This document shows positions 5,523-61,928 of a stretch of DNA of 64,000 nucleotides, one piece after another. Origin of the DNA: Vicinamibacterales bacterium. Lineage in GTDB: Bacteria > Acidobacteriota > Vicinamibacteria > Vicinamibacterales > UBA8438. Location of the stretch: NCBI GenBank assembly GCA_965208165.1, contig OZ242323.1, positions 4,851,617 through 4,915,616 on the forward strand, given 5' to 3'. Position numbers and translations under genes: made by a program. The notes beneath the pieces are model-generated. The model saw only the letters and a list, made by a program, of their open reading frames with translations, was not told the origin of the DNA and searched no databases. Positions within the stretch are counted from its first letter, which is position 1. Each line of letters starts with the position of its first letter.

Positions 5523-5792
5523 GCTCGAACCGACTTCAGGACAGCGCCGCCGGCTCAGGTCGCAGCACTCCGGAACCGTGGCGATGCCCCGACCGACTCG
5601 GGACAGCGCCGCCAGCTCAGGTCGTCGAACTCGAGCCCGCGGCACGCCCGAGCCGGCCTCGCAGCGTCGCCAGCTCAGGTCGTCCAACTCGGGTCCGCGG
5701 CACGCCCGAGCCGGCCTCGCAGCGTCGCCAGCTCAGGTCGTCCAACTCGGGTCCGCGGCACGCCCGAGCCGGCTTCAGGGCAGCGCCGCCAG
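5523..5792. repeat. Tandem repeat, 58-bp period, about 4.6 copies
   Basis: Two identical units, GGCACGCCCGAGCCGGCCTCGCAGCGTCGCCAGCTCAGGTCGTCCAACTCGGGTCCGC, at 5641-5698 and 5699-5756. A third copy starts at 5757. Two more diverged copies lie upstream (5523-5640). The array sits between the start of the 4543-5520 gene and the stop of the 5775-6797 gene. Confidence 0.9.
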
Positions 5793-10265: not shown

Positions 10266-10424
10266 GGTGCGGATCTGCTGGACGCGGGAGACCGGTTACC
10301 TCCGACACCCCGGTGCGCTACGCAGCACAAGGTGCCGGCGCGGGAGTGACCGTGTTTCCCGGAGTGCGCTCCGGGTGACGCTCGCGAGCGGCCCGGCGTC
10401 AGGCGTGTGGGCCGTGCGTGGTAC

Positions 10425-10552
10425 AGGGCGCCCAGCGGAGCCGAAGGCGACGCTTGGCGGGCCAGGAATCTGCGCCGTAGAACGGTGCAGACTCCTAACA
10501 GGGTCGGTTGGGCGCCCAGCGGAGCCGAAGGCGACGATGGGCGGGCTAGGTG
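10425..10552. repeat. REP/MITE-like repeat cluster A (about 1.7 units)
   Basis: GGCGCCCAGCGGAGCCGAAGGCGACG..TGGCGGGCCAGGAATCTGCGCC-GTAGAAC-GGTGCAGACTCCT...GGTTGGGCGCCCAGCGGAGCCGAAGGCGACGATGGGCGGGCTAGG. Same family as the copies at 14338, 25905, 28815, 30400, 31190, 47201 and 55081. Confidence 0.85.
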
Positions 10553-11043
10553 AGCCGGGCCATGCACACGACGTCGTCGGCCCGTCCGTCGAGGAGGCGC
10601 GCCCGCCGCTTGACCCCCTCGCGCACGAAGCCCGCCCCCTCGAACAGGCGGATCGCCCGCGTGTTCGACGCGAACACCTCCAGCTCGACCCGCGTCATGC
10701 CGACCGCCCCTGCCGCCTCCAGCGCGCGGGCGAGAAGCCCCGCGCCCACCCCCCGCGCCCGCCACTCGGGCAGAAGTCCGATGCCGAGGACGCCGCCGTG
10801 CCGGAACCCCTCGAAGGCGTGGCGCTGCACGTCGCACCAGCCGACCACCCGCCCCTCGGACCGCACCACGAGCTGCACGCCGCCGCCGCGCGCCAGGCCG
10901 TCGACGAACGCCCGGGTCCCGTCGGCCCCGAAGCCGTCCACCGCGGCCAGGTAGCGCCGCTCGCGCGCCACCGCCCCGACCGCGGCCCGCAGCCCCTCGA
11001 CGTCGTCGGGCGTGATGGGCTCGATGCTGAACGGTGCGGTCAT
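10546..11043 (-). CDS. GNAT family N-acetyltransferase
   Basis: 165 aa. Acetyl-CoA-binding-type motif RARGVGAGLLARALEAA and VELEVFASNTRAIRLFEGAGFVREG. The stop codon (CTA on the plus strand, 10546-10548) lies in the terminal GGGCGGGCTAG of repeat cluster A. Confidence 0.85.
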   Translation of the reverse strand: MTAPFSIEPITPDDVEGLRAAVGAVARERRYLAAVDGFGADGTRAFVDGLARGGGVQLVVRSEGRVVGWCDVQRHAFEGFRHGGVLGIGLLPEWRARGVGAGLLARALEAAGAVGMTRVELEVFASNTRAIRLFEGAGFVREGVKRRARLLDGRADDVVCMARLT

Positions 11044-11159
11044 GCGACGTCTCCCGCGGCCGCCGAGGCCCGATTATGAGCGTCGCCACCGCCCAGGCGA
11101 CGCGCGCCCTCCCCGCGCTATTCGAACTCATGGTCCTCCGGTGTGCGGCTCGAACCCCG

Positions 11160-11543
11160 TTACCGCTTGAACGCCCGTATCGTCTCTCGCGCCCAACGAC
11201 GGCCCTCCTGGAAGTCGCGCTCCTCCATCCGCGGCCGGTCGCGAAACACGATCCGGGACACTCGCTTCTTCGTGCCGGCGGGAGACCGTTCGTAGCCGAT
11301 GACCCAACGGAAGATGCTGCCGACATCGACGGCGGCGACGTCACTCTCGGAGATCGCCGCCAAGGGGATGACCGCCTCTTCATCTTCATGCGACGAGCCG
11401 GCGGTCAGGTCGACCAGCCGCGCCACGAGCTCATCGCCACTCATCTCCACGACGTAACCCTCCCACTCCTGTAGAACCTGCAGCGTCGCCCTCCTCTCGG
11501 GCTCGGATCGCGGTGGACTGGAGTTCATGGCCCCACCGAACAC
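11160..11543 (-). CDS. Hypothetical protein (127 aa), tightly coupled to the upstream SprT-like gene
   Basis: ORF with non-degenerate, charged composition and more A/T-ending codons than its neighbours. The start is 1 nt downstream of the SprT-like stop. I recognise no family. Confidence 0.5.
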   Translation of the reverse strand: MFGGAMNSSPPRSEPERRATLQVLQEWEGYVVEMSGDELVARLVDLTAGSSHEDEEAVIPLAAISESDVAAVDVGSIFRWVIGYERSPAGTKKRVSRIVFRDRPRMEERDFQEGRRWARETIRAFKR

Positions 11544-11544
11544 C

Positions 11545-12354
11545 TCACGACGCGGAGGGAGGACGCGTGACGGCCGACGGCGGAGCCGCCCCGCCGGTGT
11601 TCAGTCGCCAGGCGATCTCCCCGCCGCACTTCCGGCACCGCGCACCGTGCCGCAGCCGGCGGCTCAGGCGCTGGCGCCGCCACTGCTTCCCGCAGCCGCA
11701 CTCGCCCAGCCAGCGGGCCGGGGTGTGGTCGACGTCGTGGCAGCGCTCGGCGGTGCAGCCGATGGCCCGGGCCACCGCCTTCCAGACGTCGTCGTGATGG
11801 TGCCGGTGGCCGACGATCGCGTGGGCGATCTCGTGCAGCAGGGTGTCCTCGATGTCGGCCCGGGTCGCCCGCAGACAGTAGCTCACCGACAGATCGATGC
11901 GCTTGTCGGCGTAGCGGCAGACGCCGGCGCGGGCCGTTGACAGGTCGAAGCCGAAGCCCCAGTCCGCGTCCAGCCCGCTCGCGGCCCGGTGACGGGCGAG
12001 GAGGTCGCCGGCCAGCGTCTCGACCTCGGCCAGCGTGCACTCCCGCTCGGGCGCCCGTTCGACCACGGTGAGGAGAGTGTAGGGCACCTTCCACAGGGCG
12101 TCGTCGCCGGCCGCCACCACGGCGCGGGCGCGCTGCAGCTCGGCGACGGCGCCCTCGATCGCCTGGCCGCGCCACCGGAACCGCACGCGGCTGCCGACGG
12201 GACAGGCGGCGCCGGGGAAGTCGGCGGTGATGGCGCCGGGCTGACGCGGCAGGGACGCCGGACGCGGCGGGGACGCCGGACGCGGCGGGGACGCCGGACG
12301 CGGCGGCGGAAAGAGCGGCAACTGGAACCCTGAACGCATCGGAGGTACCGGCAC
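11545..12354 (-). CDS. SprT-like zinc metalloprotease domain protein
   Basis: HExxH motif in LLHEIAHAIVGHRHHHDDVW, followed by a Cys-rich zinc-ribbon-like tail (GECGCGKQW...ARCRKCGGEI). The N-terminus carries PRPASP x3, encoded by a 21-bp tandem repeat at about 12245-12305. Confidence 0.8.
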   Translation of the reverse strand: MPVPPMRSGFQLPLFPPPRPASPPRPASPPRPASLPRQPGAITADFPGAACPVGSRVRFRWRGQAIEGAVAELQRARAVVAAGDDALWKVPYTLLTVVERAPERECTLAEVETLAGDLLARHRAASGLDADWGFGFDLSTARAGVCRYADKRIDLSVSYCLRATRADIEDTLLHEIAHAIVGHRHHHDDVWKAVARAIGCTAERCHDVDHTPARWLGECGCGKQWRRQRLSRRLRHGARCRKCGGEIAWRLNTGGAAPPSAVTRPPSAS

Positions 12355-12358
12355 CGGG

Positions 12359-13999
12359 CTATCTCCCTGCGCGCTCGACCTGCGCGGCCATCTCGCGCAG
12401 CATCTCCGCCGGGGAGATGCCGGTCCAGCAGTGGCCGCGGCCCGGACCGTAGACGATGCGGGCCTCGATCGACGGCCGGCCCTGCAGGAACGCGTCGAGC
12501 CGGCGCACCGCGCCGTCGAGGAAGTAGTCGTCCATGTCGCCGACCCAGATGTTCAGCCGGCCCCGCAGCTTCGGCGCCAGCGTGTCCCACCCCCGTTCGA
12601 GCACGAGGCGCAGGTCGTAGCGCTCCCAGTGCGTGGTCACCTCGGTGTCGATCTCGCCGGACGCGGGGTCCCAGAGCGGGACGGGGAGGCCGTCCGCGCC
12701 GCGGGGGCCGTAGACCGCGTTCCACGCCCCCCACTGGCCGCCCGACCGGGTCCAGCTGTCGCCGTGGCCGAGCACGTTCTCCATCCGCAGCTCGTGCCGC
12801 ATGGTGAACCGGGTGCTCCCGTCGAGGTTCCGGGCGCTGGGCAGCTCTCGTCCCTCGCCATCCACGTAGGCGTTGCCGCCCCGGTAGACATCCACGAGCT
12901 GGAAGGCGCGGAAGTCGACGCTGTCGGGGCACGAAGCCCAGGCCCCACCGAAGAAGTCGGGATGGAAGATCTGCAGGGCCAGCGCCACCCAGCCCCCCGT
13001 CGACGCGCCGTCGAGCACCCGGGCGCCCGCCGAGCCGCCGGCCCGGAACCGCTCCTCGACCCAGGGGATCAGCTCTTCGGTGACGGCGGCGCCGTAGGGG
13101 CCGCTGTTGGCCGAGTCGACCTGGTAGGGGTCTCCGTACGGCCCCGCCCCGTCGAGGTGCAGGAGCACGAAGCGGGGCGCGTCGGGGTCGAGCCACGCGG
13201 TGCGGAACGGGGACCCCGGCCGCATCATCCTCCGCACCCCGGTGTACCGCGCGCCGTAGCCGCCGATGCGCACCCGCAACGGATAGCGCCGCGCCGCATC
13301 CTCGTCGTGGCCCGGCGGCAGGATGACGCCGGCCCGGAGGTGGATCGGGCGGCCGTGGAACGCGGACAGACGCTCGGAACGGATGCGGACGAAGCGCAGG
13401 AGATCGGTGTCGTCGGGCAGCCGCTCGTCGGGGATGCGCCGCGTCAGGCGGAGGTCGATCGCGGCCGGCCGCGCGGGGTCGAGCTCCACGCGCCGGACGT
13501 CGCTGTACAGGTTGCCGGCCGCGTTGGAGCGGCGGATGTCCCGGTTGGTCGCCAGCACCGCCTGCACGCGGTACTCGCCGGCCGGCAGATCGCGCAGGGC
13601 CTCGAGGGGAAACGCGGCCGCCGCGGCCCCGACCGTCACGCGGGCTCCCGGGGCGAGGGACAGGGCATCCACCCCGAGGGTGGGCACGGCGCGGGCTCCG
13701 GTGCGGCCGATGAGGAAGCGCGGCTCCATCGCCGGCCGGTCGCCGGGGACCATCACCACGAGCAGCCGTCCCGGCGGCTGGGCGGGCAGCGACGGGTCGA
13801 GGGTGACCTCGAAGCGCAGGCCGGGGCCGGCCTGGCCGGCTGAGACAGGCCCGGCGGACGCGGCGGCAAGTACCGCCGCAGCGAGCACGCAGACCAGAGT
13901 CTGTGGACGCATCACGGATCGCATTGGCAATGCTGCAAGCCCGATGCGCGGACCCGCCAACACGGCGGCTTGCGCCGCCGACGGCCAGCAGGGCGCCAC
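12359..13999 (-). CDS. Putative esterase / alpha-beta hydrolase family protein (secreted)
   Basis: 546 aa. Signal-like VCVLAAAVLAAASAGPVSAG. Esterase-like core VLLHLDGAGPYG...EELIPWVEERF...LDGASTGGWVALALQIFHPDFFGGAWASCPD. Confidence 0.7.
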   Translation of the reverse strand: MAPCWPSAAQAAVLAGPRIGLAALPMRSVMRPQTLVCVLAAAVLAAASAGPVSAGQAGPGLRFEVTLDPSLPAQPPGRLLVVMVPGDRPAMEPRFLIGRTGARAVPTLGVDALSLAPGARVTVGAAAAAFPLEALRDLPAGEYRVQAVLATNRDIRRSNAAGNLYSDVRRVELDPARPAAIDLRLTRRIPDERLPDDTDLLRFVRIRSERLSAFHGRPIHLRAGVILPPGHDEDAARRYPLRVRIGGYGARYTGVRRMMRPGSPFRTAWLDPDAPRFVLLHLDGAGPYGDPYQVDSANSGPYGAAVTEELIPWVEERFRAGGSAGARVLDGASTGGWVALALQIFHPDFFGGAWASCPDSVDFRAFQLVDVYRGGNAYVDGEGRELPSARNLDGSTRFTMRHELRMENVLGHGDSWTRSGGQWGAWNAVYGPRGADGLPVPLWDPASGEIDTEVTTHWERYDLRLVLERGWDTLAPKLRGRLNIWVGDMDDYFLDGAVRRLDAFLQGRPSIEARIVYGPGRGHCWTGISPAEMLREMAAQVERAGR

Positions 14000-14047
14000 C
14001 GCAAGGGCAAGCTCCGGTGGACCATTGGCGGGAAGTGAAGGGAAGGG

Positions 14048-14281
14048 TCAGTGGCTGGCGTTCACGTGACTGTTGAAGGCACGGCTCAGCTCGTCCACGC
14101 GACCGGTGAGCCTGTCCACCTTCCCGCTGACCACCAGAACGCCAATGGCGGCCACCAGGCCGGCGCACGCCCCGATCACGGCGGCGATTCCCGACACGAC
14201 GTCGAAGATCTCCATGAGTCGAGGATACCCTGCTCGGGAGAAGGCTTCAACCGGGACGGCACCCGCCGTCAGCCATGCCAC
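14048..14281 (-). CDS. Small membrane protein (77 aa), hypothetical
   Basis: One clear TM helix (VVSGIAAVIGACAGLVAAIGVLVV), then a short helical tail (GKVDRLTGRVDELSRAF). No family recognised. Confidence 0.4.
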   Translation of the reverse strand: MAWLTAGAVPVEAFSRAGYPRLMEIFDVVSGIAAVIGACAGLVAAIGVLVVSGKVDRLTGRVDELSRAFNSHVNASH

Positions 14282-14337
14282 AACGCACCGCCCCGGCTGC
14301 TAGAATAGGGGACTCCGTACCGGCAGCCGGAAGTGCG

Positions 14338-14500
14338 CGCCGTGGACGGCGCAGACTCCTGGCGGGTTGGTTGGGCGGCAATCGGAGCCGCAGGCGACGA
14401 TTTCCGGGCCAGGAGTCTGCGCCGTAGAACGGTGCAGACTCCTGGCAGGGTTGGTTGGGCGCCCAGCGGAGCCGAAGGCGACGATGGGCGGGCTAGGAGT
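14338..14500. repeat. REP/MITE-like repeat cluster B (2 units; reference copy)
   Basis: Unit 14348-14423 (76 bp) has perfect 16-bp terminal inverted repeats: GGCGCAGACTCCTGGC at 14348-14363 and GCCAGGAGTCTGCGCC at 14408-14423. Then comes the junction GTAGAAC, and a second unit ending GGGCGGGCTAGGAGTGCC. Confidence 0.9.
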
Positions 14501-14509
14501 GCCACTGTG

Positions 14510-15523
14510 ATGATGAACCGCTCGACGACCGTGTCCCGATCCGTATTGCGCACACTCGCCGCGCTGGCCGTGGTCGCCGGCGCCGCCATGGTCGCCTGCA
14601 GCCCGCAGGGCGCCGGCGGCCTCACCGAACGCCTGTCGGTCGCCACCGGCGGCACCGGGGGCGTCTACTACCCCTACGGCGGCGGCGTCGCCAAGGTCAT
14701 CAGCGACCACCTCGAGGGGGTGGAGGCGACCGCGGAGGTCACCGCGGGGACCGTCGACAACCTGAAGTTCATCTCGAACCGGGGCGCCGACCTGGCGTTC
14801 GTCCTCGCCGACTCGCTCGACGACGCGGCGCAGGGGCGCGGCGCGTTCGCCGACTTCGGCACGGTGCCGGCGCGGGCCCTCGCGGTGCTCTACGACAACC
14901 TGAACCAGCTCGTGACCCTCGAGGGCAAGGGCATCGAGAGCGTCGCCGACCTTCGCGACCGCGTCGTGTCGACGGGGGCGCCGGGCAGCGGCACCGAGAT
15001 CACCGCGCTGCGCGTGCTCGAGGCGATGGGCCTCGACCCGGACGCCGACATCCGCAAGCAGAGCCTCGGGGCCGCGCAGTCGGTCGACGCCATCAAGGAC
15101 GACAAGATCGACGCGTTCTTCTGGAGCGGCGGCGTTCCCACCGGCTCCGTCCTCGACCTCGCCTCCACCCCCGGGCGAACCGTCAAGCTGGTGCCCAATA
15201 CCGACACCTTGCCGTTCCTCCATGAGAACTACGGCGACGCCGTGTACCACGCGGTCAACATTCCCAGCACGACGTACCCCGGGATGAGCGGGGACGTCGA
15301 GGCGGTCGGGGTGGCCAACGTGCTGGTGGTGCACGAGGAGATGTCTGACGATCTGGCCTACCGCATCACGCAGGCGCTGTTCGAGCACCAGGACGAGCTG
15401 GCCGCCATTCATCCCGAGGCGGAGAAGCTGTCAATGGAGAGCGCGGTGACGGGGTCGACGGTGCCGTTCCACCCGGGCGCCGTCCGGTACTACGAGGAGC
15501 AGGGGGCCTGGCCCGGATCGTAG
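14510..15523 (+). CDS. TAXI-family TRAP transporter solute-binding protein (lipoprotein)
   Basis: Trimmed from the 14333 ORF, whose 5' part reads through repeat cluster B. MMNRSTT...LAVVAGAAMVAC lipobox-like signal. GGTGGVYYPYGGGVAKVI and TTYPGM...VGVANVLVVHE motifs typical of TAXI receptors. Confidence 0.9.
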   Translation: MMNRSTTVSRSVLRTLAALAVVAGAAMVACSPQGAGGLTERLSVATGGTGGVYYPYGGGVAKVISDHLEGVEATAEVTAGTVDNLKFISNRGADLAFVLADSLDDAAQGRGAFADFGTVPARALAVLYDNLNQLVTLEGKGIESVADLRDRVVSTGAPGSGTEITALRVLEAMGLDPDADIRKQSLGAAQSVDAIKDDKIDAFFWSGGVPTGSVLDLASTPGRTVKLVPNTDTLPFLHENYGDAVYHAVNIPSTTYPGMSGDVEAVGVANVLVVHEEMSDDLAYRITQALFEHQDELAAIHPEAEKLSMESAVTGSTVPFHPGAVRYYEEQGAWPGS

Positions 15524-24784: not shown

Positions 24785-26038
24785 GTGGCTTCTCCCGTGC
24801 GCCGCATCCTCCACCTCGACATGGATGCGTTCTACGCGTCGGTGGAGCAGCGCGACGATCCGTCGCTGCGCGGCCGGCCGGTGGCCGTCGGCGGCCGGCC
24901 CGACCGGCGCGGGGTGGTCGCCGCCGCCAGCTACGAGGCCCGGAAGTTCGGGGTGCGCTCGGCGATGTCGATGGCGCGGGCGGTGCGCCGGTGCCCGGAG
25001 CTGGTCGTGGTACCGCCCGACTTCGCCCGCTACCGGTCCGTCTCGGACCGCATCTTCGACATGTACCGCTCGGTCACCCCCCTCGTCGAGCCCCTCTCGC
25101 TCGACGAGGCGTACCTCGACGTGACGAGCAACAGTTGGAACGAGCCGCTCGCCACGACCGTGGCCCGGCGGCTGAAACAGTGGATCCGCGCCGAGACGGC
25201 GCTGACCGTCTCGGCCGGGGCCGCGCCCAACAAGTTCCTCGCGAAGATCGCCTCCGACTGGGACAAGCCCGACGGCCTGACCGTCATCCCCGTCGAGCGG
25301 GTCGACGCCTTCCTGCGGCGGCTCCCCGTCGACGCGCTCTGGGGGGTCGGCCCCGTCACCGCGAAGCGGCTCCGGGCCGCGGGGGTGGTGAAGCTCGTCG
25401 ACGTGCGCACCGCGGACCCCCGCGTGCTCCGGCGCGCCGTCGGCAGCCGCATCGACTGGCTGCGCCGGCTCGCCGAGGGCAAGGACGACCGTCCCGTCAG
25501 CCCCGACCGCGTCGTCAAGTCGTCGGGCTCGGAGCACACCTACCCGACCGACCTCACCGACCCGGACGAGATCCGGCGCGAGCTCGACGGGCTGGCGCGG
25601 CGCGGGGCGGCGTGGCTCGAACGCAAGGGACTCGCGGCCCGCACCGTCACCATCAAGGTGCGCTACGCCGACTTCACCACCGTCACCCGCAGCCACAGCG
25701 CGGATCCCGCCACCCGCGACGCCGGGCAGATCGTCCTGCGGGCACGACGGCTGCTGGACCGGACCGAGGCCTGCACGCGGCCCGTCCGCCTGCTCGGGGT
25801 GACCATGCACAACCTGTCGGCGGAGGAAGACGCCCCGCCCGGCCCCGGGCATCCGACCCTGCCGCTCTCCGAGGCGTTACCGCCGGCCAGGCGTCAGCGC
25901 CCGGGGACGGCGCAGACTCCTGGCCCGCCGGTCGAGGGCCGGGCGGAGCCGCGGGGCGACGATTGGCGGGCCGGGCTCGGCGTTTCCCCCCGAAAAACGG
26001 GCCCCGATGGCAAGCACTCGGAGCCCGAGCCAAGGTAA
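24785..26038 (+). CDS. dinB: DNA polymerase IV (Y-family), with C-terminal tail running through a repeat copy
   Basis: ILHLDMDAFYASVEQRDDPSLRGRPVAVGG, SLDEAYLDVT, AKIASDWDKPDGL, LPVDALWGVGPVTAKRL. GTG start. The last ~55 codons have no DinB-like character and include repeat copy C. Confidence 0.9.
   Translation: MASPVRRILHLDMDAFYASVEQRDDPSLRGRPVAVGGRPDRRGVVAAASYEARKFGVRSAMSMARAVRRCPELVVVPPDFARYRSVSDRIFDMYRSVTPLVEPLSLDEAYLDVTSNSWNEPLATTVARRLKQWIRAETALTVSAGAAPNKFLAKIASDWDKPDGLTVIPVERVDAFLRRLPVDALWGVGPVTAKRLRAAGVVKLVDVRTADPRVLRRAVGSRIDWLRRLAEGKDDRPVSPDRVVKSSGSEHTYPTDLTDPDEIRRELDGLARRGAAWLERKGLAARTVTIKVRYADFTTVTRSHSADPATRDAGQIVLRARRLLDRTEACTRPVRLLGVTMHNLSAEEDAPPGPGHPTLPLSEALPPARRQRPGTAQTPGPPVEGRAEPRGDDWRAGLGVSPRKTGPDGKHSEPEPR
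25905..25975. repeat. REP/MITE-like repeat copy C (diverged), inside the dinB 3' tail
   Basis: GGACGGCGCAGACTCCTGGCCCGCC...GGGCGGAGCCGCGGGGCGACGATTGGCGGGCC matches the family consensus. Confidence 0.7.
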
Positions 26039-28814: not shown

Positions 28815-28863
28815 CATGTCACGTTGGAAAGGGCAACCCCGCAGGCGACGACTGGCGGGCTAG
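28815..28863. repeat. REP/MITE-like repeat half-copy D
   Basis: ...GCAACCCCGCAGGCGACGACTGGCGGGCTAGCG. The terminal CTAG supplies the stop of the minus-strand 28860-29273 gene. Confidence 0.6.
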
Positions 28864-29613: not shown

Positions 29614-30411
29614 ATGCGTCTCACCGTGCTCACGACGTTCACCGCGGCGCTGCTGACCGCCGCCGCCCCCGCCGCCGCGCAATCGTCGGACCGCTTCCCG
29701 GCCGAGGGCGGCGACGTCGTCGTCACCCCCATCCTCCACTCGAGCGTGCAGATCGAGCACGCCGGCACGGTGGTGCACATCGACCCCTGGACGGCCGGCG
29801 ACCTGACGGACGCCAAGCCCGCCGACCTGATTCTCGTGACCGACGACCCGGCCCACCACCTCGACCCGGCCGCCATCGAGCAGCTCCGCAAGCCCGGGGC
29901 CCCGGTCGTGCTGACCGCGACCGCCCACGCCCGTTTCGGCGACGGCGTGGTGCTCGCGAACGGCGAGCAGGGGGTGTTCGCCGGCGTGCCGGTGGAGGCG
30001 GTCCCCGCCTACGACATGACGCCCGGCCAGCCGTGGCACCCGAAGGGCGAGGCGAACGGCTACGTCGTCACCCTGGGAGGAAAGCGGCTCTTCTTCTCGG
30101 GCGTGGGCGAGTGCGTCCCCGAGATACAGGCGCTCGAAGACATCGACGTGGCGTTCATGCCGATGAACCTGCCCGTCGACCGCATGCGCCCGATCCCGGT
30201 GGCGGAGTGCGTGAAGACCTTCGGGCCGCCGGTCGTCTACCTCATCCACTACGACAACGCGACCGCGCGCTGGTTCGGCGATCCCGAGCAGCCCCGCCCC
30301 GACAACGCGATGGAGATCGCGGCCACGATCCAGGCCCTGCGGGACGCCCTCGGGGGAGAGCCGATCGAGGTGCGCGACGGCGACTGGTATCCGGCCCGGA
30401 CGGCGCGGTAG
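29614..30411 (+). CDS. MBL-fold metallo-hydrolase (secreted)
   Basis: Trimmed from the 29254 ORF to ATG at 29614. Signal peptide MRLTVLTTFTAALLTAAAPAAAQ. DLILVTDDPAHHLD (degenerate HxHxDH region), FMPMNLP, VVYLIHYD. Confidence 0.8.
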   Translation: MRLTVLTTFTAALLTAAAPAAAQSSDRFPAEGGDVVVTPILHSSVQIEHAGTVVHIDPWTAGDLTDAKPADLILVTDDPAHHLDPAAIEQLRKPGAPVVLTATAHARFGDGVVLANGEQGVFAGVPVEAVPAYDMTPGQPWHPKGEANGYVVTLGGKRLFFSGVGECVPEIQALEDIDVAFMPMNLPVDRMRPIPVAECVKTFGPPVVYLIHYDNATARWFGDPEQPRPDNAMEIAATIQALRDALGGEPIEVRDGDWYPARTAR

Positions 30412-30576
30412 CGGCGCGGCTCCGCGAACGGCGCGGATTCGTGGAAGGTCGGTTGGGCGGCCAGCGGAGCCGAAGGCGACGGTTGGCGCGGCGGGAGTCT
30501 GCGCCGCGGAACGGCGCGGATTCCTGGAGGGTCGGTGGGCGCCGAGGGGAGCCGAAGGCGGCGGTTGGCGGGCTAG
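30400..30576. repeat. REP/MITE-like repeat cluster E (2 units) filling a convergent intergenic gap
   Basis: GAACGGCGCGGATTCGTGGAAGGTCGGTTGGGCGGCCAGCGGAGCCGAAGGCGACGGTTGGCGCGGCGGGAGTCTGCGCC-GCGGAAC-GGCGCGGATTCCTGGAGGGTCGGTGGGCGCCGAGGGGAGCCGAAGGCGGCGGTTGGCGGGCTAG. The flanking genes stop at 30409-30411 (TAG) and 30573-30575 (CTA). Confidence 0.85.
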
Positions 30577-31189: not shown

Positions 31190-31430
31190 GCCCCCCGTTG
31201 CCGCCGACTCTCCTGTCCCGCCAATCGTCGCCGGGCGACCTTGCGGTCGCCTCGGGAGTCTCGCTGACGCGGAATCCCAGCGCCCCGAGGACGGCCGCGC
31301 AACCGACCCTCCACGAGTCCGCGCCCTCGGCGCCGACTTCCTGCTCGCCCACCGTCGCCTGACGGCTCTGCCGGGGGCCCAACCCACGCTCCAGGGGCTC
31401 GCGGCGTTCTACGACGCAGACTCCTGGCCG
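31190..31430. repeat. REP/MITE-like repeat cluster F (about 2.5 units, reverse orientation)
   Basis: CCCGCCAATCGTCGCC..., ...GCGCAACCGACCCTCCACGAGTCCGCGCC..., GGCGCCGACTTCCTGCTCGCCCACCGTCGCCTGACGGCTCTGCC...CCCAACCCACGCTCCAGGGGCTCGCGGCGTTCTAC-GACGCAGACTCCTGGCC. These are reverse complements of the family consensus. Confidence 0.8.
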
Positions 31431-32488: not shown

Positions 32489-32504
32489 GGGAGGTCACTC
32501 CCGG

Positions 32505-32812
32505 GAATCGCCGAACGCGGCTCGGATGGCCGCCCAGCCAACCCGTCGGCGATCCCCGCCATCACCCGCCGCCTCCGCGGGAGCCGGCGACTCCGGGGAG
32601 CCAACGCCACGGCGGAATCGGATGGCCGCCCAGCCAACCCGTCGGCAAACCCCGCCGTCACCCGCCGCCTCCGCGGGAGCCGGCGACTCCGGGGAGCCAA
32701 CGCCACGGCGGAATCGGATGACCGCCCAGCCAACCCGTCGGCAAACCCCGCCGTCACCCGCCGCCTCCGCGGGAGCCGGCGACTCCGGGAGCCAACGCCA
32801 CGGCGGAGTCGG
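32505..32812. repeat. Tandem array, 96-bp period x about 3, diverged subfamily of the REP-like element
   Basis: GGATGGCCGCCCAGCCAACCCGTCGGC recurs at 32524, 32620 and 32716. The unit contains CGCCCAGCCAACCC, the reverse complement of the family core GGGTTGGyTGGGCG. It lies between divergent queG and the NHL-repeat gene. Confidence 0.9.
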
Positions 32813-32913: not shown

Positions 32914-34065
32914 ATGCCACAACGACTGCTTGCGAGCCTGCCGATGCTCGCCCTGCCCCTCCTCGCGTGCGAGCGGCCCGAGGCCCCCGAGGCGGCCGCC
33001 GACGCCGCCGCGACCCCCGGGGAGCCCGCCGCCGCCCTCGCGTTCGAGGTCGACCCCTACTGGCCGCGGCCGCTCCCCGACGACTGGCTGCTCGGCAACG
33101 TCGTGGGCGTGGCCACCGACTCGCGGGACAACGTGTGGATCATCCACCGGCCGAACAGTCAGCGCGGGGCCGAGGCGACCCCGCCGGTCATCGCCTTCGA
33201 CCCCGAGGGCAACGTGGTCCACGGCTGGGGCGGGCCCGGCGACGGCTATGCATGGGGCACGCAGACCCACGGCATCCACGTCGACCACGGGGACAACGTG
33301 TGGGTCGGCTTCGGCGGCGGGCTCCCCTACGACCTGTCGAGCCGGGCCACCACCGACAACGCCCACGTGCTCAAGTTCACCCCGGACGGCGACTTCCTCC
33401 TGCAGATCGGCGAGTTCGGCAACGGCACCGCGGGCAGCGGCAGCACGGAGTTCCTCGGTCAGCCGACGGACATCTTCGTCGACCCCGAGACCGACGAGGT
33501 CTACGTCAGCGACGGCTACACCAACCGGCGGGTCATCGTCTTCGACGCCGACACCGGCGAGTACCGGCGTCACTGGGGCGGCTACGGCGACCCGCCCGAC
33601 GACGCGCCCCAGCCGGCGTTCACGCGGGACGGGCCGCTGCCGCGGCAGTTCAACACGCCGCACTGCGTCGGGCGGTCGGCCGACGGCAACGTCTATGTCT
33701 GCGACCGCGGCAACCAGCGCCTGCAGGTGTTCGAGCCTGACGGCACGTTCGCGACCGAGGCGCTGATCGCCGCCCCCCTTCGGGACGGCGCCGTCGGCGG
33801 GACGCCCTGGGACCTCGCCTTCTCGCGCGACGCCGACCAGCGGCTCGTGTACGTCGCCGACGGCGGGGCCCACGCCGTCCACGTGCTGCGCCGCGACACC
33901 CTGGAGGTGGCGGCGACGTTCGGACGCCGCGGGCGGTGGGCCGGCCAGTTCGAGTCGCCGCACAGCCTCGCCGTCGACTCGCGGGGCAACCTGTTCGTGG
34001 GCGAAACGCTTGACGGGCGCCGCGTCCAGAAGTTCGTGCCGGCCGAGACGGAGCCTGCGCCGTAG
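32914..34065 (+). CDS. NHL-repeat six-bladed beta-propeller protein (peptidylglycine lyase-like), secreted
   Basis: Signal-like LLASLPMLALPLLAC. Repeated blades (VATDSRDNVWIIHR, IFVDPETDEVYVSDGYTNRRVIVFD, VGRSADGNVYVCDRGNQRLQVFEPDG, LAVDSRGNLFVGETLDGRRVQKF). Confidence 0.8.
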   Translation: MPQRLLASLPMLALPLLACERPEAPEAAADAAATPGEPAAALAFEVDPYWPRPLPDDWLLGNVVGVATDSRDNVWIIHRPNSQRGAEATPPVIAFDPEGNVVHGWGGPGDGYAWGTQTHGIHVDHGDNVWVGFGGGLPYDLSSRATTDNAHVLKFTPDGDFLLQIGEFGNGTAGSGSTEFLGQPTDIFVDPETDEVYVSDGYTNRRVIVFDADTGEYRRHWGGYGDPPDDAPQPAFTRDGPLPRQFNTPHCVGRSADGNVYVCDRGNQRLQVFEPDGTFATEALIAAPLRDGAVGGTPWDLAFSRDADQRLVYVADGGAHAVHVLRRDTLEVAATFGRRGRWAGQFESPHSLAVDSRGNLFVGETLDGRRVQKFVPAETEPAP

Positions 34066-34138
34066 CGAGGCGGAGCCTGCGCCGTAGCGAGGCGGAGCCT
34101 GCGCCGTAGCGAGGCGGAGCCTGCGCCGTAGAACGGCG
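34051..34138. repeat. 22-bp tandem repeat x4, each copy carrying TAG
   Basis: GAGCCTGCGCCGTAGCGAGGCG starts at 34051, 34073, 34095 and 34117. The first TAG (34063-34065) is the stop of the NHL gene. The last copy ends GCGCCGTAGAACGGCGCC, which is the REP-family junction motif. Confidence 0.9.
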
Positions 34139-34430
34139 CCGCCCGCGCCCGGCAAGCCCCGGGATCCTCGGCAAGGCTCAACCTCTCGCTGCAAGGGACC
34201 CGCCCGGGGGTGCACGACATCATTGTTGGATGGCGGCCCCCCGGCGCCGTCGGGCTCTCGATTCACGGGGACGGCTGGGCCATGGACCCTCGCGGCAGGT
34301 CAATCCAAGGGCTGCCGCGCCCGCACACGAGGTGATGCCCGTCTTGCGTGGCGGCGCACGACTTTCCTGTCGTGCACCCCCCGCCCGGCTGGAACTTGCG
34401 CCAGCGGTGCAGTAGCATTCACGGGAATCC

Positions 34431-36038: not shown

Positions 36039-36295
36039 CGGGAGGGCGGATGGCGGACGGCGCGGAACGGATCGCCGGCATCGCCGCTCCCGCCGTGGCG
36101 TAGGTCAGGCCGCAGCGGTGACCGGGAGGACGAATGGCGGACGGCGCAAGACGGACAATCGGCACCGCCGGCGTCGCCGCGGCCGCCGTGGCGTAGGTCA
36201 AGCCGCAGCGGTGACCGGGAGGACGGATGGCGGACGGCGCAGGACGGACAATCGGCACCGCCGACGTCGCCGCGGCCGGCACGGCGACCGAACCA
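36035..36295. repeat. Tandem repeat, about 83-93-bp period x about 2.8
   Basis: GTGAC(C)GGGAGG(A/G)CG(A/G)ATGGCGGACGGCGC...GCCGTGGCGTAGGTCA(G/A)GCCGCAGCG starts at 36035, 36118 and 36211. The ankyrin gene stop TGA (36036-36038) is the first GTGAC of the array. Confidence 0.85.
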
Positions 36296-36324
36296 CCACG
36301 GTCGTGACGCCGGAGAGGGTAACG

Positions 36325-45588: not shown

Positions 45589-45855
45589 GGCGTGGCCCGG
45601 AAAGCGTCGCCGGTCGGCTCGGCCGCCGCCCCGGCCTCCAGCCGTCCGCACCGTTCCACGGCGCAGAGGCCTCGGCGGTCGTCGGCGTCGAGGCAGCTGG
45701 CGACGTCGCCTCGCCGATGTCGCCGAGGCGCAGGCCGTGATTCCCTTGCGGAAACGCCGGGGACACGACAAGGTACCGTCGTCAGAGCCCTGATCCGAGT
45801 ATAGACAGGCCGCTTGACCCCCACAAGGGCGGGCCGGTCGAGAGAGGAGGCGTCG

Positions 45856-47205
45856 ATGAACATGCCCGCGGGAAGGCTCATTCACCGGGGACGCGGCTCG
45901 CGGTACTTCTGCGCGGTGTTGGCGGGGCTGATGCTGCTCGGCGCGGGCACGGCGGCCCCGGCCCCGGCGGCCCCGCCGACGGGGGCCTCGCCTGCGGCCG
46001 CCCCGCCCCCGGCGGGGAGCCAGGAGACCGAGTCGGCCCTCGTCGCACGGGCGCGCGCCATCCACGACCGGGTGCTGACCATCGACACCCACGACGACAT
46101 TCCCCTCGACTTCGCGACCGCGACCACCGACCCCGGGGTGCGCGGGGAGCGTCAGGTCGACCTGCCCAAGATGGAGGAGGGCGGCCTCGACGCCGGCTTC
46201 TTCGTCGTCTACGTCGGGCAGACCGAGCGAACGCCCGAGAACGAGGCGCAGGCCAAGGCCGACGCGATGACCAAGTTCGAGGCCATCCGCCGCATGGCCG
46301 AGCAGATGTACCCGGACCGCATCGCCATCGCCTACACCGCCGACGACTTCGAGCGCATCGCCGGCAGCGGCAGGTCCATCGCGGCCATCGGCATCGAGAA
46401 CGGCTACGTCATCGGGCGCGACCTCTCGCTCATGCAGACCTACTACGACCTCGGCGCCCGCTACTTCGGCCTCGTCCACAACGGGCACAACGACATCGCC
46501 GACTCGGCCAACCCGCGGCCGAACCTAGGCGACGCCCCGGCCGAACACGGCGGCCTCAGCGCCTTCGGGGCCGAGGTCGTCGCCGAGGCGAACCGGCTGG
46601 GCATGATGCTCGACGTCTCGCACGCCTCGAGGGCGGCGATGCTCGACACCGTGCGGCTGTCGCGGGCGCCGGTCATCGCCTCGCACTCCAGCGTCCGGAC
46701 CCTCGCCGACAATCCGCGCAACCTCGACGACGAGCAGCTCCTGGCCCTGCGCGACAACGGCGGGGTCATGCACACCGTCGCCCTCGGCGCCTTCGTCAGC
46801 AGCGCGGCGGCGGCCCGCGGCGACGCCATCCGGACGCTACGGGCGGACATCGGGCTGCCGCGGTTCGGCCCGGCGGACCCGGCCGGCCTCGACGAGGCGG
46901 CCCGCGGCGAGTACGACCGCCGCATGGCCGAGATCGACGGGCGATGGCCGGCCGCCGACGTCGCCACGTTCGTCGACCACATCGACTACGCGGTCGAGCT
47001 GATCGGCCTCGACCACGTCGGCATCAGCTCCGACTTCGACGGCGGCGGCGGCGTCGTGGGGTGGAACCACGCCGGCGAGACCTTCAACGTCACCCTCGAG
47101 CTGGTGCGGCGCGGCTACACCGAGGCCGAGATCGCGCAGCTCTGGGGCGGCAACCTGCTGCGGGTGCTGCGCGAGGTCGAGCGGGTGGCGGCGGCCAGCC
47201 GCTAG
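45856..47205 (+). CDS. Membrane dipeptidase (peptidase M19 family), secreted
   Basis: ATG at 45856 after GAGAGGAGG. Signal-like FCAVLAGLMLLGAGTA. LTIDTHDDIPLDF, IGIENGY, LVHNGHNDIADS, MLDVSHAS, VIASHSS, GISSDFDGGGG. Confidence 0.9.
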   Translation: MNMPAGRLIHRGRGSRYFCAVLAGLMLLGAGTAAPAPAAPPTGASPAAAPPPAGSQETESALVARARAIHDRVLTIDTHDDIPLDFATATTDPGVRGERQVDLPKMEEGGLDAGFFVVYVGQTERTPENEAQAKADAMTKFEAIRRMAEQMYPDRIAIAYTADDFERIAGSGRSIAAIGIENGYVIGRDLSLMQTYYDLGARYFGLVHNGHNDIADSANPRPNLGDAPAEHGGLSAFGAEVVAEANRLGMMLDVSHASRAAMLDTVRLSRAPVIASHSSVRTLADNPRNLDDEQLLALRDNGGVMHTVALGAFVSSAAAARGDAIRTLRADIGLPRFGPADPAGLDEAARGEYDRRMAEIDGRWPAADVATFVDHIDYAVELIGLDHVGISSDFDGGGGVVGWNHAGETFNVTLELVRRGYTEAEIAQLWGGNLLRVLREVERVAAASR

Positions 47206-47395
47206 CCGCAATCGTCGCCAGCGGTTCCGCTTGGCCCCCTGCCGACTCGCCAGGAGTCGGCGCCGTTCCACGGCACGGACTCCTGGCCCGCTGCAGCGTC
47301 GAGGGCAGGCCCTGCGCGGCGACAGAGGTTCCGAGTCAAAACGACGGGCGCCAGGACGCTGCATCGTCGAGGGCAGGCCGGACGCCGGCGACCGA
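47201..47395. repeat. REP/MITE-like repeat cluster J (about 2 units, reverse orientation)
   Basis: GCTAGCCGCAATCGTCGCCAGCGGTTCCGCTTGGCCCCCTGCCGACTCGCCAGGAGTCGGCGCC-GTTCCAC-GGCACGGACTCCTGGCC... The terminal CTAG contains the dipeptidase stop TAG (47203-47205). Confidence 0.8.
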
Positions 47396-55080: not shown

Positions 55081-55197
55081 CGCGCGGACTCGCCGATCCC
55101 GAGTCGTGTCGGGTGGATTCACACCGGCGCCAGCCCGCCCATCGTTGCCTTCGGCTCCGCTGGGCGCCCAACCAACCCTCCAGGAGTCCGCGCCCTT
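55081..55197. repeat. REP/MITE-like repeat copy K (reverse orientation)
   Basis: CCAGCCCGCCCATCGTTGCCTTCGGCTCCGCTGGGCGCCCAACCAACCCTCCAGGAGTCCGCGCC is the reverse complement of the family consensus. Confidence 0.85.
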
Positions 55198-55274
55198 CTA
55201 CTCCTGGCTCGAGCCCTCCACCGGCACACCGGGCGCGCAGTCGTCGGCCAAGCCGCGAACCGCGCCAGCGGCGG

Positions 55275-60349: not shown

Positions 60350-61928
60350 GCTGCTGGCGCAGAACGTGGTCGCGCACTGGATGCAGGCCGCTGGCGTGGC
60401 CGGGGTCGCTTGGCTCGGGGTTTCCGTCCTGCGGCTTCGCGAGCCCGGCTTCCTGCTGAAGTACTGGCAGGCGGTGCTCCTCGTCCTGCTGCTCGTGCCG
60501 TGGCTCCAGCCCTGGCAGCCGGCCGCGGCGACACCCGCCCACGGACCGCCCCTGGTCGGACCGGAGCGGGAGTCCGCGGCGACACCCGCCCACGGACCGC
60601 CCCTGGTCGGACCGGAACGGGAGCCCGCGGGCGTCGCCGGTGTCTCGTTTGCCGAGAGCGTCGTCGCCCTGCCCGCCGAACGGTGGAGCGTCGAGCCGTG
60701 GACGTGGGTTCTGGGGATCCTGGCCGTAGTAGCCGTCTTCCGGCTGGCACGGCTCGGGCTGGGCCTCGTGCGGCTCGGCCGTCTCGCCCGCTCGACCGAC
60801 CGGGTCTCGCCGCCGGCGCCGGCGCGGGAGCTCCTGGCGCGGTTCCCGACGTCGGTCACCTTCGTTCATCCGCCGGATGTCCGGATGCCCTGCAGCTTCG
60901 GGCTGTTCCGCCCGACGGTGGTGCTGCCGGCCGCCTTCGACCGGCTCGAGCCGGCGTTCCAGCGCGGCATCGTCTGCCACGAGCTGCTGCACCTCGAACG
61001 GCGCGACTTCGCCGCGGCGGTGGCCGAGGAGGTGGCGGCGGCGCTGCTGTGGTTCCACCCCTGGGCGTGGCTGATCCGCGGGCGCATCCGCCTGCACCGG
61101 GAGCAGGTCGTCGATGCCGCGGTCGTGCGCCGCACGGGCGATCGGCGCGCCTACGTGCGGTGTCTGATCGCGCTGGCGGGGCACCCGCGTGCGTTGTCCC
61201 TCGCGGCGCCGATGCTGCGGCCGACGGAGCTGCGCGCCAGGGCCGATGCCTTGTTCGAGAAGGATCGAACGATGTCCAGACGAGTGTCGGCGGCGCTCGC
61301 GATTGGGCTGGGAGCGGCACTGGGTGCGACGGTCTGGATATCCGCGGCGACGGTTCCGCTGAGCGCCGCCGCGACGCGGACTCCACGGGACGCGGCCGCG
61401 CGGGGGCCGGCGCCGCAGGCGACGGGCGCCGGTCAGCCGGCGACCGGGGTGACGATTGCGATGGTCGCCGCCGCGCGGGGGTCGGCGCCACAGGCGCCGG
61501 GCGTCGGTCAGCCGCCAACCGGGGTGACGATTGCGCTGATTGGCGGCGCGCGGGGGCCGGCGCCGCGGGCGACGGGCGACGGGCGGCCGGCGACCTCCGC
61601 CTCCGGTCGTCGCCAACCTCGATCGACCGGCGCGGGCCAAGCGAGGCGGCGGACGGCGGCAGTCCTGCAAGAGCTGCAACAGACGGTTGCGGCCATGTCC
61701 GACCGGTTGCGGAACGACGAAACGGCGGGCGAACTGGTGCCACAGGTCACCGAGATGCGGCAACGACTCGCCGAGCTGAACGAGCGGCTGCCAGGCCACT
61801 GGCTCGGGGTCAGCATTTTCCCCTCCGGCACCGCGACGAGCGAGGAGCGCGTCGGCGTGAGCCGCGAGCGCGTGCGGAAGGCGACGCTGGCGGATCCGAC
61901 GCGGAAGATGCCGCGCGCGGAGCGATGA
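60339..61928 (+). CDS. BlaR1-like M56 family membrane metalloprotease / signal transducer (no penicillin-binding sensor seen)
   Basis: TM N-terminus. HExxH in IVCHELLHLERRDF, then WFHPWAW. Internal in-frame tandem repeats (51 bp x2 at 60525-60626; 75 bp x about 2.7 at 61398-61600). The C-terminus is coiled-coil-like, not a transpeptidase-like domain. Confidence 0.85.
   Translation: MTAELLAQNVVAHWMQAAGVAGVAWLGVSVLRLREPGFLLKYWQAVLLVLLLVPWLQPWQPAAATPAHGPPLVGPERESAATPAHGPPLVGPEREPAGVAGVSFAESVVALPAERWSVEPWTWVLGILAVVAVFRLARLGLGLVRLGRLARSTDRVSPPAPARELLARFPTSVTFVHPPDVRMPCSFGLFRPTVVLPAAFDRLEPAFQRGIVCHELLHLERRDFAAAVAEEVAAALLWFHPWAWLIRGRIRLHREQVVDAAVVRRTGDRRAYVRCLIALAGHPRALSLAAPMLRPTELRARADALFEKDRTMSRRVSAALAIGLGAALGATVWISAATVPLSAAATRTPRDAAARGPAPQATGAGQPATGVTIAMVAAARGSAPQAPGVGQPPTGVTIALIGGARGPAPRATGDGRPATSASGRRQPRSTGAGQARRRTAAVLQELQQTVAAMSDRLRNDETAGELVPQVTEMRQRLAELNERLPGHWLGVSIFPSGTATSEERVGVSRERVRKATLADPTRKMPRAER

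Follow-up and report, generated by a model that had tools for sequence, protein, structure and literature searches.

The subject of this work is a dispersed repeat in a 64 kb piece of a Vicinamibacterales chromosome (72% G+C; the whole stretch is called the window below), whose 84-nt unit ends, to the nucleotide, on the amber (TAG) stop codons of flanking genes. In order, the unit consists of (C)TAG (its left end), a first hairpin, a spacer, a second hairpin, GGCGGGC and then TAG (its right end). A sequence-only reading of the window had noticed the coincidence at seven genes, and the observation is hereby confirmed and found to be general across the family. With a probability of roughly 0.55, we interpret the repeat as a non-autonomous element, similar to repetitive extragenic palindromes (REPs) and bacterial interspersed mosaic elements (BIMEs), that integrates at (C)TAG. 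Of the two explanations put forward in the sequence-only reading, an element seeking (C)TAG is the best supported, and remodelling of protein C-termini is limited to a minority of genes.

A family profile was built from the clear copies of the window and run over it with nhmmer, which gave 10-11 loci in 64 kb, and Tandem Repeats Finder (TRF) returned a period of 84 nt. To find copies elsewhere, each species was represented by a single genome and scanned for an 18-mer of hairpin 2, which yielded at least 116 eight-kb pieces; among the 116 pieces listed (L001-L116), 56 carry at least 99 profile matches. These listed pieces belong to Vicinamibacterales/Vicinamibacteria assemblies from at least 12 genomes, with the exception of one piece labelled Pseudomonadales. 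About 100 copies were aligned with their flanks to define the borders of the unit. Genes were called with a codon-usage score trained on the window, and the census of unit ends was taken on about 100 copies from other genomes.

Stop codons at the repeat ends

The census leaves little room for coincidence. On the left side, 38 arrays had a co-oriented coding open reading frame (ORF) ending between -60 and +90; in 19 of these 38 the ORF stopped exactly at the flank TAG, in six further ones it stopped at a TAG in the loop of hairpin 1 (+15), and several of the near misses with TAG turned out to be degenerate extra left arms. On the right side, a convergent gene ended within 40 nt in about 21 cases, 12-13 of which stopped exactly in the terminal CTAG; the remaining eight had a terminus other than TAG, with the stop 5-39 nt away. 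Compared with chance, exact coincidence was thus far in excess at either end (binomial P = 1e-31 for left and 3e-20 for right ends), and about 40% of the arrays, whichever way they faced, met a stop codon to the exact nucleotide. Furthermore, an element lay within 90 nt downstream of 50/135 TAG-ending genes versus 14/159 TGA-ending genes (odds ratio 6.1, P = 5e-9), and the TGA-ending genes near an element stood at variable distances from it and never abutted it. The base before the stop was C in 13/13 right-end and 14/19 left-end cases, as against about 35% of all TAG stops, and this excess of C indicates that the motif is CTAG rather than TAG. High copy number, extragenic position and a preference for the 3' ends of ORFs, all of which are criteria for REPs, were found here.

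In the window itself, all seven stops end ORFs with the codon-position G+C pattern (high G+C at third positions) of real genes, and the gene names were borne out by Pfam (GNAT, DUF1761, DUF179/AlgH for yqgE, Peptidase_M19, MBL fold, QueG and NHL, as well as DinB for a further gene). Cluster A (10424-10549, plus strand; 1.5 units; nhmmer E = 4e-22 and 8e-9) closes with CTAG at 10546-10549, and the GNAT gene on the minus strand (10546-11043) takes its amber stop, CTA 10546-10548, from it. Copy D (28839-28863, plus) consists only of the last 25 nt of a unit (GCAGGCGACGACTGGCGGGCTAG), and its CTA 28860-28862 is the stop of the minus-strand DUF1761 gene. Cluster E (30409-30576, plus) occupies the whole 161-nt gap between the convergent MBL-fold (plus) and yqgE/AlgH (minus) genes: as had been claimed, the MBL stop abuts the cluster, and the gap runs from the MBL TAG (30409-30411) through two head-to-tail units to a CTAG that holds the yqgE stop (CTA 30573-30575). 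Copy I (47202-47289, minus; E = 2e-11) is a single reverse unit whose CTAG at 47202-47205 supplies the TAG of the plus-strand M19 dipeptidase gene (47203-47205).

The sequence-only reading had placed the stops of GNAT, DUF1761, yqgE and M19 in one terminal motif. Three of them lie in exact copies of GGCGGGCTAG, and that of M19 falls in a reverse copy that has diverged (GCGGCTAG); the exact matches in the window begin at 10540, 14487, 28854 and 30567, and the one at 14487 alone is not a minus-strand stop. Likewise, a junction motif was said to contain the stops of queG and of the NHL-repeat gene. With at most one mismatch it occurs six times against 0.57 expected, and it does contain the queG stop (CTA 31409-31411, minus), in a one-mismatch copy (GCGTCGTAGAAC) and not an exact one. 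The NHL stop (TAG 34063-34065, plus), by contrast, sits in GCGCCGTAG-CGA of a 22-nt partial copy, the exact 12-mer being found 60 nt further on, at 34123. The partial copies at 34044-34140 (plus) are four tandem 22-nt left arms of hairpin 1 (CGAGGCGGAGCCTGCGCCGTAG; TRF period 22, 4.0 copies, 98%); the NHL stop is the TAG of the first copy, and the last runs on as AACGGCGCC. Cluster F (31208-31427, minus; E = 1e-7 and 1e-4) extends with about 2.5 diverged units from the queG stop to the yqgE start, and queG terminates at the loop TAG; 15 nt upstream and in frame stands CAG (31424-31426), the flank codon.

Anatomy of the unit

A unit is made of 81 nt plus one shared TAG, hence the period of 84 nt, and can be written as (C)TAG, GAGTCTGCGCCG-TAGAA-CGGYGCAGACTCCTGG, CAGGGTTGGTTG, GGCGCCCAGCGGAGCCGAAGGCGACGATGGGCG, GGC and TAG. 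Hairpin 1, (CYAG)GAGTCTGCGCCG-TAGAA-CGGYGCAGACTC(CTRG), is a near-perfect palindrome of 31-37 nt with the tetranucleotide as its 5' foot; it falls within the 20-40 bp of the short imperfect palindromes of REPs and is represented in the window by the inverted-repeat pairs I14 and I16. It comprises 16 pairs, with 91% of cells paired and five pairs showing compensatory change. For both helices together, 38 distinct copies gave 92% paired cells, compared with 31-44% in controls with slid partners, and nine compensatory pairs; many G-U pairs were seen on the plus strand of the element.

Single and arrayed copies alike have (C)TAG directly 5' of GAGTCTG and 3' of GGCGGGC, and neighbouring units of an array have a single YAG in common. 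Most copies bear CTAG as the left tag and a minority GTAG; pairing of this tag with CTRG at the 3' foot is feasible. The base before the left TAG varies (C/G/A), and that before the right TAG is always the C of GGCGGGC. A second TAG stands in the loop of hairpin 1, 15 nt after the left TAG and therefore in frame with it, so that on the plus strand of the unit the flank and loop TAGs, in one frame, are the only stops; on the minus strand a stop occurs solely within CTAG. Termini that do not serve as stops read CAG, TGG, CGG or GAG, which is what transitions from TAG would give. In the CTAG-to-CTAG phase, a comparison of GAGTCTGCGCC with the reverse complement of the right end, CCCGCCCATCG, revealed nothing alike beyond CTAG, i.e., no terminal inverted repeats. 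The layout is that of the IS200/IS605 type of insertion sequence (IS), with distinct subterminal hairpins and fixed tetranucleotides at the left junction and the right tip. Reading the unit as a classical miniature inverted-repeat transposable element (MITE), with the loop TAG on either side of 17-nt inverted repeats, was rejected, because single copies start with CYAG-GAGTCTG and mostly finish with GGCGGGC-YRG; only in the loop-TAG phase are there inverted 17-mers, and this phase mismatches the single-copy borders. A search of the window against Rfam had no match reaching the gathering threshold, and 10300-14600 was without one even at E<=1.

CTAG as a landing site

The sequence-only reading had argued that CTAG/TAG sites in so GC-rich a genome are mostly stop codons. 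This is not so for the trinucleotide: the window has 197 TAG per strand versus about 21 amber stops, and only about 5% are stops. CTAG is depleted about 3.5-fold (18 observed versus 63 expected under a Markov model), and 16 of the 18 sites lie outside coding sequence, at least six being stops and five repeat ends, with only two inside coding sequence. Since TAG is common and CTAG is scarce, the premise holds for CTAG only. Several intergenic sites read CTAGAAT (14300 and 57006 among them), resembling a -10 promoter box.

Gene ends occupied in different ways provide more direct evidence. At the yqgE stop the window carries the right end of two units; in a related genome (L207; 92% protein identity) a single unit lies there the other way round and abuts the stop with its left end, CAC TAG being followed by GAGCCTGCG. 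Opposite orientations were seen at a second gene end too, with CGC TAG followed by CCCGCC in L079 versus CGG TAG followed by AAGTCTG in L073. At a third, in L092 and L001, a common CTAG stop is followed by different repeat families; in L001 (orthologous to L092 857-933) about 300 nt of another repeat come after the CTAG stop, two of its copies ending ...GGGGCGA-CTAG. Moreover, two filled/empty pairs display CTAG duplicated by other inserts. L208 equals L207 plus a 106-nt insert between two ACTAG; this AT-richer insert (5562-5667) lies between the yqgE stop and the repeat, and no second copy of it was found in the retrieved DNA. L053 equals L022 plus a 104-nt element between the CTAG stop and the repeat, the gene-side CTAG being kept and the distal copy reading CTGG. 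Four copies of this 104-nt element, here called MITE-2, were located (L053 3040-3143; L049 5179-5281; L096 768-865; L047 4483-4510), all at 84-nt repeat junctions, each flanked by CTAG at one border and by CTGG/CTAG at the opposite one; the element has imperfect 12-nt inverted ends (TGCTGCGTCACG...TGTGGCACTGCA). The yqgE gene end attracts several repeat families: a further one (...CTTAGACGGGGCTTCGCCCCGAACCCCACGCGGGCG..., tandem in L117) begins few bases after the yqgE TAA/TGA in L117 (from 5069) and L210-L212 (from 5565).

The following scenario can be proposed. The element would insert at (C)TAG and regenerate it, either by a 3-4-bp target duplication or in an IS200/IS605 or REP/RAYT-like fashion (RAYT, REP-associated tyrosine transposase), landing 3' of a short target whose tetranucleotide is repeated at the distal end of the element. 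Of the CTAGs that survive, about half overlap amber stops of genes with a last codon ending in C. Because the depleted CTAG survives largely at amber stops, many insertions would land exactly on a stop codon; and because CTAG is palindromic and stands on both sides of the insert, the last codon and the amber stop would be kept in either orientation, leaving the protein unchanged. Selection would later keep the gene-side TAG, and TAGs unused as stops would drift to CAG, TGG or CGG. Upon loss of the gene-side TAG, translation would run to the in-frame loop TAG 15 nt on, adding 4-5 residues, as may have happened in queG; in the other two frames the unit is stop-free, and the whole of it would be read through, as is presumed for dinB. 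Head-to-tail arrays may have grown when a new copy entered the terminal CTAG of one already in place.

Alternative explanations

Several observations weigh against integration at a pre-existing (C)TAG, the claim of the sequence-only reading that is otherwise largely supported; simple targeting does not predict TGA at the same codon in orthologues free of the repeat. M19 genes without the repeat, in four lineages (L200, L201, L203-206), end CGA/CGG TGA versus CGC TAG with the repeat, copy I being present in L197-199 and L202 as well. GNAT without the repeat (L213-216) ends ACC TGA versus ACC TAG, and yqgE without it carries TGA in two lineages (L209, L210-212). DUF1761 ends CGC TGA in L207 and, by contrast, CAA TAG plus two units in L209. 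Neighbouring repeat-free genes keep their stop identity at similar divergence, and filled and empty M19 alleles differ at four of the last nine coding bases. The left tag, being base-paired in hairpin 1, looks element-borne rather than target-derived, and, in a test for variable target-site duplications, left and right trinucleotides of the 84-nt unit were not correlated beyond TAG/TAG. Among the compared loci there is no clean filled/empty pair for the unit itself, and arrays that abut no gene on the right have a ragged edge there. RAYTs share a conserved motif, NPV(R/K)AG(L/M); a regular-expression search for it in six-frame translations of the retrieved DNA, as opposed to whole genomes, had no match, a weak negative, and no full-length relative with TnpA or any other transposase tied to the unit was seen in that DNA. 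The M19 genes of L201 (empty, TGA) and L202 (filled, TAG) are 96% identical, suggesting that recombination took place, with its breakpoint where the gene ends. Decayed copies downstream of the TGA-ending M19, GNAT and yqgE orthologues were searched for and rejected, none being significant (L203 reached z = 2.7 in a single global alignment and z<=0.44 on retest); a separate test downstream of DUF1761 in L207 was marginal.

Such a pattern gives rise to the thought that the element makes TAG stops instead of seeking them: its own CTAG would overwrite the third base of the last codon and the native opal stop, by insertion or by microhomology-mediated copying or deletion at the boundary of last codon and stop. 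The TGA-ending orthologues of M19, GNAT, yqgE and DUF1761, the change from CGA TGA to CGC TAG in M19, the contrast between L079 (right end, CGC TAG) and L073 (left end, CGG TAG), the tag being a paired part of hairpin 1, and the constancy of stops in background genes all speak for it. Nevertheless, we regard this conversion as unlikely. G or A precedes TAG in 5/19 left-end cases, as native codons would have it; TGA-ending genes near an element never abut it; CTAG duplication is seen directly for the two other inserts; and the TGA pattern would also arise if CTAG stops fill so fast that only TGA alleles stay empty. In addition, where no element can be recognised behind an amber stop, the downstream sequence is no more similar to the unit than it is behind TGA genes (P = 0.44), and we know of no mechanism that would place an insert in frame at a stop whatever its sequence. 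The extension of this idea, that insertion turns opal into amber and has over time driven the amber-rich stop usage of the lineage (about 40-50% TAG), seems to us quite improbable. Alternatively, the repeat might be a structure of the 3' untranslated region selected by the host, as an RNA stabiliser, a terminator or a translation-coupled regulator akin to REPs near stop codons, with selection or compaction setting its position at the stop. In agreement with this, the hairpins are conserved, with compensatory changes and G-U pairs on the plus strand, copies H and I persist at orthologous sites beside M19 genes 88-98% identical, and copies lie preferentially after gene ends; Liang, Rudd and Deutscher reportedly found in 2015 that E. 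coli REPs within about 15 nt of the stop lower expression of the upstream gene. However, genes are abutted in both orientations, so that the transcribed strand differs, and what are G-U pairs on one strand are C-A mismatches on its complement; many copies occupy divergent promoter regions (B, G and H); a U-tract follows neither hairpin and an Rfam family match is absent; and a function would leave the nucleotide-exact junction and the far-side CTAG unexplained. A host-selected role of this sort has, in our estimation, little chance of being the explanation.

The last explanation, also raised in the sequence-only reading, is general remodelling of 3' ends, in which insertion takes place inside gene ends and the ORF stops at the first TAG of the repeat, shortening or extending the protein. 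Repeat-free orthologues decide this point, five C-termini being unchanged. YqgE ends ...GV(H/N) in 119/120 homologues, and a metagenome scan yielded four relatives of more than 70% identity, all without the repeat, with the same C-terminus. (A 226-aa yqgE product with an odd tail in L209, 935-1615 (P0126), results from a one-base frameshift in a contig of 3.6x coverage and is an assembly artefact; in the correct frame the gene ends GVH-TGA and is not a read-through variant.) For the M19 dipeptidase, dozens of orthologues share the ending ...VAA(A/E/N)(S/G)R (..VAAASR in the window), GNAT homologues are nearly all 165 aa long and end CMARL(T/A), and DUF1761 and MBL proteins end at the same residue in relatives. 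Beyond the window, an outer-membrane-protein-like gene in L039 ends ...LVGF right on CTAG. A repeat at the gene end thus mostly leaves the protein C-terminus unaltered, and the claim of redefined C-termini is refuted for the four genes that stop in CTAG (GNAT, DUF1761, yqgE and M19).

It does apply to a minority, namely queG, dinB and probably the NHL gene. The queG product ends ...GQESAS, its last six codons (GGC CAG GAG TCT GCG TCG) being the left arm of hairpin 1; this is an extension by 5-6 codons, orthologues ending 5-9 residues earlier or differently, and in L207, where cluster F is absent and the gap is 7 nt, the ORF runs to a different TGA. In dinB (24797-26038), copy C (25887-25975, plus; E = 2e-5), a degenerate unit, lies in the 3' tail; its flank codon (CAG, 25888-25890) is out of frame, and the ORF consequently reads through, with about 50 extra codons, to a TAA at 26036. 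The IMS_C domain of this protein ends at residue 344 of 413, and the orthologue of L210 has 347 aa. The NHL tail ..EPAP matches GAG CCT GCG CCG TAG of the left arm, so that its C-terminus is probably repeat-derived. The stops of the unit, confined to CTAG on the minus strand and to the flank and loop TAGs in one frame on the plus strand, would permit such tails. Insertion without regard to frame, however, predicts read-through over in-frame stops at 2:1, and no more than five candidates stand against about 38 exact coincidences. Together with the unchanged C-termini, this rarity refutes remodelling as a general rule, and we give it hardly any credence as the origin of the pattern as a whole.

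Further copies and genomic setting

Not every copy touches a stop. Cluster B (14337-14496, plus; two units; TRF period 84; E = 8e-23 and 1e-20) has a terminal CTAG at 14493-14496 where no ORF ends; it runs on as AGGAG, 8-12 nt before GTG/ATG codons of an NMT1-like gene, and judging by its letters this end (CTAGGAG) may act as a Shine-Dalgarno sequence. Right ends facing a co-oriented gene (14493-14515 in the window, about 5060 in L091 and about 965 in L015) read CTAGGAG with a start codon 5-10 nt on. Copy G (32500-32561, minus) is a weak partial match (E = 4e-4) in the divergent region of queG and NHL, on the margin of a tandem array of 96 nt x3 (32522-32812, TRF), and its membership of the family is uncertain. 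Copy H (45593-45663, minus), a degenerate unit in the divergent gap between the aminotransferase and M19 genes, involves no stop; genomes with M19 genes about 88-98% identical retain it at the corresponding site (L197-L206, about 1235-1407), in a better state than the window does (E = 6e-15 in L203 and 2e-11 in L206 versus 0.009 in the window). L200 lacks about 150-190 nt that include it. Copy J (55131-55215, minus; E = 2e-17) is one unit whose terminus, GGCGGGCTGG, is a decayed CTAG supplying no stop, the TGA of the neighbouring gene at 55275 lying 60 nt off.

Among the 42 called genes of the window, 21 end in TAG, 20 in TGA and one in TAA, and the other loci (L001-L116) have 159 TAG versus 197 TGA stops. 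The lineage, at 72% G+C, is unusually amber-rich (about 40-50% TAG), and the amber share is still about 37-41% once repeat-associated stops are removed. Copies of the window are on the plus strand from 10 to 31 kb and on the minus strand from 31 to 55 kb; no switch of GC skew was found in the window that could explain this, and, with only 10 copies, the strand pattern may be due to chance. Besides the 96-nt array (x3), the window has tandem arrays at 36073-36308, 5604-5773, 60523-60630, 61391-61595 and 12243-12306, with periods of 93 nt (x2.5), 58 nt (x2.9), 51 nt (x2.1), 75 nt (x2.7) and 18 nt (x3.6), respectively; some are probably inside coding sequence, and only the 96-nt array is weakly linked to the 84-nt family.

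Significance and comparison with known systems

The present findings extend tag-bearing REP-like palindromes to the Vicinamibacterales, abundant and mostly uncultured acidobacteria of soil and sediment. The overlap of repeats with stop codons had already been remarked on, in one sentence, for GTAG-tagged REPs of other bacteria, and it is now quantified in a new lineage. For annotation, an amber stop followed by CCCGCC or GAGTCT marks a repeat junction, the repeat encodes tails like the ones of queG and dinB, and ragged C-termini in this clade are worth checking against the repeat. More generally, a depleted palindromic tetranucleotide that survives mainly at stops becomes a landing site for several unrelated small elements, which suggests that the survival of CTAG at stops is one reason why such repeats gather just after genes. 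A change of stop-codon identity by elements is the only part that could prove surprising, if true.

REPs of many phyla have been sorted into GTAG- and CGTC-tagged families, and for acidobacteria only tyrosine transposases flanked by terminal inverted repeats were listed (Di Nocera, De Gregorio and Rocco 2013, PMC3733652). In the literature searched, we found nothing linking Vicinamibacter or Vicinamibacterales with REPs, RAYTs or REPINs (REP doublets forming hairpins). The 84-nt family shares with GTAG REPs/BIMEs and the REPIN-RAYT system a short imperfect palindrome with an NTAG 5' foot (PMC3733652; Nunvar et al. 2010, PMC2817692; Bertels and Rainey 2011, PMC3116915). As with those, its copies are numerous and extragenic, lie mostly after gene ends, between convergent or co-oriented genes, occur as singles, dimers and clusters, persist long at orthologous sites and overlap stop codons. 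Unlike them, the tag is mostly a palindromic CTAG that can pair with CTRG, whereas the GTAG of REPs is unpaired; the unit is a fixed two-hairpin module repeated head to tail instead of alternating inverted REPs; it has a far-end TAG and an in-frame loop TAG; it has no linked RAYT gene in the retrieved DNA; and its host phylum is the Acidobacteriota.

Mycobacterial interspersed repetitive units (MIRUs) are intergenic tandem units of 40-100 nt, located within operons in one orientation, whose ends overlap the flanking stop and start codons and which carry short ORFs. The present units likewise stand in tandem on gene stops, and in some copies the end reads AGGAG shortly ahead of a start codon; they differ in being rich in hairpins, in lying in both orientations and in mostly touching stops only. 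Among DDE-type elements, the IS5 group targets YTAR and IS630 inserts at TA within CTAG. With CTAG-using DDE MITEs and the Correia elements of Neisseria, the 84-nt unit has in common the CTAG/TA at both flanks, the small size and the effect on gene ends; unlike DDE MITEs, it lacks inverted termini in the CTAG-to-CTAG phase. MITE-2, with its inverted ends bounded by CTGG/CTAG and CTAG, does fit that class. IS200/IS605 elements and their derivatives, the palindrome-associated transposable elements (PATEs), have no terminal inverted repeats, different subterminal hairpins and a fixed tetranucleotide at each end. No TnpA or related full-length element was seen for the 84-nt unit, in which it departs from IS200/IS605; it agrees with this group in the absence of terminal inverted repeats, in its two different hairpins and in the tetranucleotide at both ends, and an element of this type with two identical tetranucleotides would produce head-to-tail arrays and apparent duplications. 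The asymmetric ends of the unit resemble IS200/IS605-type elements more than DDE-type MITEs.

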